A DNA stretch of 64,000 nucleotides from Octopus vulgaris (lineage: Eukaryota), in contig OX597821.1 of NCBI GenBank assembly GCA_951406725.2, forward strand, positions 15,004,001 through 15,068,000, written 5' to 3'. The notes under the pieces are model-generated. The model ran no database searches and was not told the origin of the DNA. It saw only the letters and a list, made by a program, of their open reading frames with translations. Of this stretch, positions 17,436 through 18,337 are shown in pieces (position 1 is the first letter of the stretch; every line of letters starts with the position of its first letter). The translations under genes and the position numbers were made by a program.

Positions 17436-18337
17436 AAGATAAGAAAATGGAGAAATACATCTAAATCAAATATCAATTACCAGATAATACTCAATCACAT
17501 GCTTTATTAAACCACCACATAAGAGACTGTAGGGTTAGATATAAAAGCAGAACAAATCAGTGTACATAAAGGAATGTGCATAAAAGTGTACATAAAAAAG
17601 TAATGTTGTATAATAAGTAGAATATATATAAAAGAGAATATAAATATAATTAAATATAAATATAAGTATAGATTACATCTTACAGCTTTCGGCCATGTAG
17701 ATGAGTATGTCTCATTTTACCAATATTAGCCTTTTGTGGTAGGTCAATATATATGGATATAAATGAGACATTTACAAAAATATCATAAGGAAAATGAAGA
17801 GGCCTTATGATATTTTTGTAAATGTCTCATTTATATCTATATATATTGACCTACCATAAAAGGCTAATATTGGTAAAATGAGACATACTCATCTACATGG
17901 CCGAAACAGCTGTAAGATGTAATCTATACTTATATTTATAATTACTTATATTTATATGCTCTTTTATATATATTCTACTTATTATACAACATTACTCTTT
18001 TATGTACACTTTTTTATGTACATTCCTTTATGTACACTGTTTTGTTCTGCTTTTTATGTCTAACCCTACATTCTCTTATGTGGTGGTTTAATAAAGTATG
18101 TGATTGAATATTATCTGGTAATTGATATTTGATTTAGATATATTTCTCCATTTTCTTATCTTGTATTAGTAATTTGTGGTAAATCATTTTATCTTTGCTC
18201 ATATAATACAGTAAATGAATTGATTGCATCGCAATCATTAACATTTATGTATTAACTTTGTTGGGTACTTCACTATCAGTATATTGGATATATGTTATCC
18301 CATGGAGGGTTGCATTTACAACCCCTATCTCAATTTG
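17436..18337 (+). mobile_element. Fold-back Penelope-like insertion: ~355-bp inverted arms (17436-17790 / 17803-18162) plus unique 3' extension
   Basis: Arms are reverse-complementary around a 12-nt loop; HHR-like aTGAAGA-ggcc...ggcc-GAAA-CAGCTG-TA-agatgt at 17794-17920; (TA)n on both sides. Confidence 0.8.

Follow-up and report, generated by a model that had tools for sequence, protein, structure and literature searches.

A hairpin on a predicted hammerhead ribozyme in Octopus vulgaris as a truncated back-to-back insertion of a PLE family

Introduction

Insertions in which an inverted, 5'-truncated copy accompanies the element and a tail is found on one side only have already been described for endonuclease-bearing (EN+) Penelope-like elements (PLEs; PMC8557442, PMC3846280), and pairs of ribozymes on opposite strands, 100-700 bp apart, have been reported (PMC4209133). 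The protein of PAc (Poseidon from Anolis) both cleaves and extends the two target strands, initiates at two internal sites that delimit the tail, and in vitro needs no ribozyme cleavage (PMC11167929). The Hydra clade is marked by RWK, DKT, YRDD, CxCx5C, VYIG, CxxC/CxH, an EN that lacks the CCHH motif, and (TA)n targeting (PMC8557442, section 11), and its elements are generally below 3 kb, the listed members spanning 1.1-3.0 kb (PMC8557442). The origin of the PLE inverted repeats and tails, as well as hammerhead cutting in vivo, are named as open questions of the field (PMC8557442, PMC11167929).

Here, a hairpin in a 64-kb window (the whole stretch of DNA analysed) of Octopus vulgaris contig OX597821.1 is set beside these systems. 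The locus is a dead stub with the ordinary back-to-back layout of a PLE insertion; its usefulness lies in the family to which it belongs, which is uniform, numerous and long-tailed, so that breakpoints can be counted.

The hairpin at the locus

Element positions are counted from the predicted ribozyme cut, which lies after window position 17914. The features of the locus are as follows.

17103..17434, no strand: (TA)n microsatellite, left part of the target (sequence)
17435..17790, minus strand: inverted, tail-less copy of the element 3' end (pLTR), from -111 to the fixed short end at +249 (arm alignment)
17783..17795, plus strand: junction, in which the terminal 8 nt of the inverted arm and the 5-nt insert together equal the sense strand at -563 (likely templated insert)
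17791..17802, plus strand: hairpin loop of 12 nt, the 5-nt insert followed by GAAGAGG (arm alignment)
17795..17918, plus strand: broken type I hammerhead (sequence, fold and family comparison)
17796..18337, plus strand: direct 5'-truncated copy, from -116 (family numbering) to the fixed long end at +423 (family comparison)
18164..18337, plus strand: tail of the right-hand copy, 174 nt, past the hairpin end (comparison with the full-length copy L155)
18338..18362, no strand: (TA)n microsatellite, right part of the target (sequence)

The original prediction of a hairpin with arms of ~355 bp and a 12-nt loop was borne out by local alignment, in which the arms (17435-17790 and 17803-18163, 729 bp overall) are 96% complementary, with 345 matches and 14 mismatches in 359 columns and three indels of 1, 2 and 2 nt. 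Both element 3' ends point outward into (TA)n, as was seen at both flanks. The hammerhead 5' core said to lie in the loop is there in part: TGAAGA (17795-17800) is present and is followed by the first two bases of GGCC, whereas neither C3 nor the 5' strand of stem I is found. Its partner GGCC-GAAA-CAGCTG-TA was located at 17899-17914, downstream of a 94-nt insert, which is the long stem-II insert that had been proposed. The inverted arm lacks the 5' core and carries a 2-nt deletion in stem III.

A fold-back read artefact is unlikely, because 17 differences separate the arms, whose outer ends lie at two distinct sites that are fixed throughout the family. The junction at 17790-17796 was spanned by no listed contig from 4 public runs (76-100% read), which is no evidence either way, because these are filtered contig sets and the sampled individuals need not carry the insertion.

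The window contains one more stub of this PLE family, at 58428-58553, which belongs to a more diverged subfamily. Between two (TA)n tracts it has 73 nt from the long end on the minus strand, followed by 40 nt from the short end on the plus strand; its arms have no overlap and hence form no hairpin. Short interspersed repeats stand beside both (TA)n arrays of the hairpin (window ~16880-17080 and 18363-18520), and similar sequence flanks many other family copies; these repeats may be SINE-like.

The element family and its two fixed ends

The right-hand copy has 2914 candidates in its own 2.8-Gb genome, all 40 of those scored being 96-100% identical to it, and the short end fused to TA has 571 exact matches. 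Breakpoints were mapped in 90 copies among the first 100 listed of these 571 matches, a sample in which the short end is fixed by selection. An inverted tail-less arm adjoins a direct piece in 52 of the 90 copies, and 54 of 60 direct pieces stop at the long end. Among loci chosen by BLAST, every inverted arm with its end in view (9/9) stops at the short end, and (TA)n or a close variant ends all 30 copies. BLAST places the two ends at +252 and +424 as the matches run into the TA flank, the true positions being +249 and +423. These two fixed 3' ends are 174 nt apart, both read TTG followed by TA, and are the same two used by diverged subfamilies. The family shows the pLTR layout, with direct and inverted 5'-truncated copies, variable breakpoints and a one-sided tail. 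The assignment to a PLE with an inverted, 5'-truncated pseudo-LTR was upheld; long family copies encode RT and GIY-YIG.

The inner breakpoints range from -1221 to +216 in the inverted arms (90 copies) and from -1078 to +401 in the direct arms. Long inverted arms and a TA target are what a non-autonomous DNA transposon (MITE or foldback) with long TIRs would show, and an assembly artefact could likewise be imagined; yet the inner ends are spread over more than 1.4 kb, the two outer ends are offset by 174 nt, long copies extend into an ORF for RT and GIY-YIG, and the two hairpin arms are not identical. The mapping, which the original prediction had named as a check, found variable breakpoints in place of fixed TIR ends; a fixed-TIR transposon is excluded by this range, and the transposon-or-artefact explanation as a whole has a negligible probability. 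A non-LTR retrozyme, with tandem non-coding units each holding a complete hammerhead, was also rejected, the element being a single inverted pair with a coding full-length form.

Several structures were observed around the fixed ends. The long end is closely preceded by a hairpin and, in the full-length copy, immediately followed by a short palindrome; a 6-bp hairpin is found 13 nt past the short end (window 18164-18337; L155 6870-7160, minus strand). These structures are candidate RT start signals. Tandem arrays occur beside two family copies: one next to the upstream part of L003, with a unit of ~70 nt from the element 3' UTR, and a long short-unit array at L156 ~4900-7150. Contigs of other family copies, from 4 runs guessed to be RNA and possibly DNA, cover the whole right arm, and two of them span the predicted cut.

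Full-length copy, proteins and clade

Copy L155 is full-length, with a unit of 5104 nt from short end to short end. Its ATG lies 319 nt past the 5' short end and 145 nt past the tail, its 3' UTR is ~2 kb, and the start of its 5' leader corresponds to the window tail (18164-18337). RT and EN are in two frames with one frameshift between them. RT followed by a C-terminal GIY-YIG was found in the frames of L155, L154, L141 and L142, which places the family among EN+ PLEs. The long copies carry the motifs RWK, DKT, YRDD, CxCx5C, VYIG and CxxC: in protein P0001, RWK is at position 36 and DKT (changed from DKG) at 137, and in P0002 the CxCx5C linker is at 257 and CxxC at 355. CxH near the EN end is present in the L154 frame and absent from the P0002 frame, and no CCHH motif was seen in the EN by eye. 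Pfam returned nothing significant on either half of the L155 ORF; two full-length homologues (46% and 38%) carry PF26215. Beside another family copy, at L153 3944-5746 (plus strand), lies an open frame of a different PLE with a CxxxRCxxC linker and YIG, which is presumably of Neptune type.

Residues ~55-145 of P0002, between the RT thumb and the EN linker, form an asparagine-rich low-complexity stretch that recalls the N-rich inserts of Adineta Penelope elements (PMC3846280). By its motifs and its (TA)n target, this is probably a new family of Hydra-clade PLEs. Nematis and Neptune clades, considered from DKT and YRDD, were discarded, as PMC8557442 gives these motifs to Hydra. The 5104-nt unit exceeds the 3 kb of most Hydra elements because of the ~2-kb 3' UTR, and that size is a tendency rather than a diagnostic trait (PMC8557442).

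The predicted hammerhead ribozyme

Family copies read ATCT-core-GGCC-92 nt-GGCC-GAAA-C-AGCT-G-UA-AGAT, a predicted type I hammerhead in which stem I has 4 bp and stem III, capped by a palindromic loop, has 2 bp. The 5' core is ATCT-CCGAAGA or ATCT-CTGAAGA in the family and AAAA-TGAAGA in the window copy. Among the first 100 listed of 769 matches, 77 have CCGAAGA and 23 CTGAAGA; most CTG copies examined sit in separate subfamilies. CpG decay is an unlikely source of CTGAAGA, these distinct subfamilies differing by ~24% from that of the window in the insert. The standard core is CUGANGA with GAAA. The CCGAAGA form, seen in one group of subfamilies, departs from it by U4C, a change known from a viroid variant with reduced activity in vitro (PMC3088659).

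When a natural intact copy was folded, stem II had a probability of 0.95 and closed one long irregular rod, and stem I in its active register cost 3.7 kcal/mol. Among 41 copies drawn from several subfamilies, pairing is retained in 98.4% of cells, and double (compensatory) changes occur at 3 pairs, all in the stem II extension. The cells with double changes exceed all 500 shuffles, a measure inflated by relatedness, while the number of double-change pairs among these 41 copies is not above the shuffles (304/500). The insert differs by up to 34% between subfamilies at a constant length of 92 nt, and a few family copies have other insert lengths. The 41 copies were picked by a pattern that fixes the insert length, stem I and the greater part of stems II and III, so that the invariance of these parts is not evidence. 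The long conserved extension of stem II in the predicted self-cutting RNA is the one unusual feature of the family.

In the window copy the parts are placed as follows, all on the plus strand.

17795-17800: partial 5' core
17801-17804 and 17899-17902: strands of stem II
17805-17898: 94-nt extension
17903-17906: GAAA, followed by a minimal stem III with a palindromic loop
after 17914: predicted cut
17915-17918: 3' strand of stem I, without a partner

Folding of this copy pairs the hairpin arms instead of forming stem II. The window ribozyme is predicted to be dead, because it has neither C3 nor the 5' strand of stem I and its arms out-compete stem II; Rfam gave 0 matches in the window at the gathering score.

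Hairpin apex and 5' ends relative to the predicted cut

According to the original prediction, the RNA template began near the self-cleavage site. In such a model both cDNAs would run off a template end at or close to the ribozyme, and the apex would mark the ribozyme. For the window copy this claim was not supported. The hairpin apex lies at -111 and -116/-117, ~115 nt upstream of the predicted cut, and both halves of the core are retained. A cleaved RNA starts at +1 and is without both halves, so the template of the window copy was uncleaved. Nor is the core a preferred starting point in the family: no arm begins within 15 nt of -115 (0/90 inverted and 0/52 direct, of which 22 and 7 reach that far), and the genome-wide rate of 5' ends at the 5' core is 0.0044 per nt vs 0.0051 in the background near but off the cut (11 matches, 10 of them true and 1/11 dropped, in an 11-nt window against 400 anchors). 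In fact, chance alone would start tens of copies in the core region.

Furthermore, the last 8 nt of the inverted arm and the 5-nt insert together make a 13-nt match to the sense strand at -563, and the 8-mer of the junction has one other site in the element, at that same position. A random insert would give the -563 match with a probability of 0.006 under the author's own null, the match having been found after looking. Short sense-strand inserts from upstream also occur in copies L045, L068 and L106. As the insert matches -563, the template likely extended far upstream of the apex, and by this sequence match it is likely to have reached more than 440 nt beyond it. The landing of the apex on a ribozyme motif is most likely chance.

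Whether 5' ends ever fall at the predicted cut was a separate count. With an anchor at +1..+20, 577 copies were found, 29 of them without the upstream GGCCG register, of which 26 were true truncations in -10..+1 and 3 were dropped. A second search yielded 18 true truncations in +3..+10 among 27 matches, 9 being dropped (3 non-family, 2 with an indel or deletion, 4 starting beyond +10); position +2 falls outside both tallies. From -2 to +5 there are 22 events over 7 positions vs 22 over 13 flanking positions, a weak 1.8-fold excess (p=0.03, ~3% of copies) in an interval chosen post hoc, for which the capture rate per mismatch position (0.85) and the number of copies at risk in the second search were estimated. 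The peaks are at +1 (6 events), -6 (5) and +3 (7). Among individual copies, L236 (G000:C3:8768300-8770400, ~846-1507) is the strongest candidate for synthesis on self-cleaved RNA; it is a perfect hairpin with 0 mismatches in 211 columns, whose arms both start at +1 with a 19-nt duplication from +1.

A template that began at the ribozyme would account for this 1.8-fold excess and for L236, and a shared template end predicts the enrichment of symmetric junctions described below. Against it stand the apex 111-117 nt upstream of the cut, the lack of arms starting near -115, a core rate below background, the match of the junction insert to -563, and peaks at -6 and +3 as high as that at +1. Taken together, such an origin of the window hairpin is very improbable; in a small minority of other copies, cleavage may set the 5' end.

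Formation of the mirrored arms

Copying from both ends of a break, the other half of the original explanation, emerged as the best model, given the two fixed 3' ends and arms that are closest to each other. The pooled distance between arms is 1.6% (73/4439 columns, 23 hairpins) and is below the mean distance to other copies in 23/23 hairpins. The window arms share two private variants, in no other copy compared (2/82 and 2/76). No gradient of identity towards the apex was detected in 19 hairpins (p=0.92), and arm-to-arm gene conversion near the apex was rejected on that account. Pairs whose arms do not overlap make up 18 of 52, and these require two priming events, as simple fold-back cannot make them. 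At the joins, an overlap of at least 4 nt was seen in 16 of 42 vs 3% expected, with the reservation that BLAST overlaps may include mismatches. The two breakpoints are within 20 nt of each other in 9 of 52 pairs vs 2.8 expected by permutation (p=0.0008); this threefold near-symmetric excess, to which kind the window copy belongs, implies some dependence between the two stops. A shared template end, coupled stalling of a dimer, or self-priming by fold-back in a subset could explain it.

A cDNA or antisense template that snaps back near the apex and primes itself, with EN resolution making the tail-less end, would explain tight loops and shared private variants directly; self-priming has been proposed for PLE palindromes (PMC3846280), and EN-mediated resolution for the tails (PMC8557442). 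However, fold-back yields neither the 18/52 pairs without overlap nor pairs whose tail-less arm reaches further upstream than the tailed arm; both ends are alike as priming sites, each with TTG before TA, and the loop insert comes from a distant site rather than a local palindrome. As the source of the window hairpin, fold-back is therefore considered unlikely.

The preferred reading, regarded as probable, is a 5'-truncated insertion of a Hydra-motif PLE into (TA)n, made by both-end priming on uncleaved RNA from a single donor. By analogy with PAc in vitro, the endonuclease would break the (TA)n target, and both broken ends would prime reverse transcription, with fixed starts at +249 and +423, 174 nt from each other. 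The RNA of this donor may have taken part as one molecule and not as two. Microhomology would then have joined the two incomplete cDNAs head to head, in some copies with a templated insert. In the window copy, the 3' end of the short-end cDNA may have annealed to the long cDNA at -563 via 8 nt, copied 5 nt and re-landed at -116; alternatively, the cDNAs may have been joined at -563 and ~440 nt of the loop lost later. The breakpoint counts mean that most templates were uncleaved, that the arms come from one donor, and that the two stops are correlated.

A further proposal is offered only tentatively. The family may possess an undescribed hammerhead variant with a dimer-type core, a structured 92-nt rod that replaces loop 2 and is under selection across subfamilies, and a weakened U4C core in the most uniform subfamilies, which would cut slowly in vivo, ~3% of copies starting at the cut and both arms being copyable from one cleaved RNA, while the hairpins record both-end priming. 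If true, hundreds of hairpins would be a natural record in which a Hydra-clade RT primes from each end of a break on a single RNA, with start sites 174 nt from each other.

Comparison with known systems

No description of the family, of a long-stem-II PLE ribozyme or of a 174-nt tail was found in the open literature, with subscription journals, Repbase and Dfam outside the search; an earlier description of the family may exist. The predicted hammerhead with long stem II and U4C, together with the 174-nt tail, would be the features not found in print.

The metazoan type I hammerheads of PMC4209133 resemble that of the family in a stem I that closes both ends, G10.1-C11.1 (or G-U), GAAA, a 2-bp stem III and a palindromic AGCU loop suited to cleavage as a dimer, and differ from it in that here a 92-nt irregular rod extends stem II. 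In the Hydra ribozymes listed in PMC8557442, loop 2 is 3-10 nt and all cores begin with ctga, whereas the octopus family has 92 nt at loop 2 and mostly ccga cores. Owing to the long stem II, descriptor searches with short spacers, such as the 7-17 nt of the core search in PMC8557442, would miss ribozymes of this type.

In layout, the family is like the pLTRs of EN+ PLEs (PMC8557442) and of Adineta Pen2a (PMC3846280), with a head-to-head inverted 5'-truncated copy, a tail on one end only and microhomology at the joins; the tail is 174 nt here vs 30-40 nt in the published elements. With the Hydra-clade PLEs of PMC8557442 it shares RWK, DKT, CxCx5C, a C-terminal GIY-YIG, CxxC and CxH, as well as the (TA)n target and a hammerhead in the 3' repeat, and one of them, Penelope-13_HM, is listed with an attached 5'-truncated inverted copy. 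Hydra-1_Obim, a cephalopod member, has 2507 bp, another ribozyme and a protein clearly different by eye (PMC8557442); its length and ribozyme make the octopus element a different family.

PAc belongs to another clade, in which the ribozyme and start sites overlap the ORF start (PMC11167929); in the octopus family, by contrast, the long end precedes the ATG by 145 nt, and the ribozyme lies 249 nt upstream of the short end. Both have an AT-rich target; the two internal RT start sites bounding the tail and the extension of both strands with uncleaved RNA as the main template, as in PAc (PMC11167929), are probable for the octopus family. The unprocessed RNA that is the main substrate of PAc (PMC11167929) agrees with the rarity of 5' ends at the predicted cut in the octopus family.
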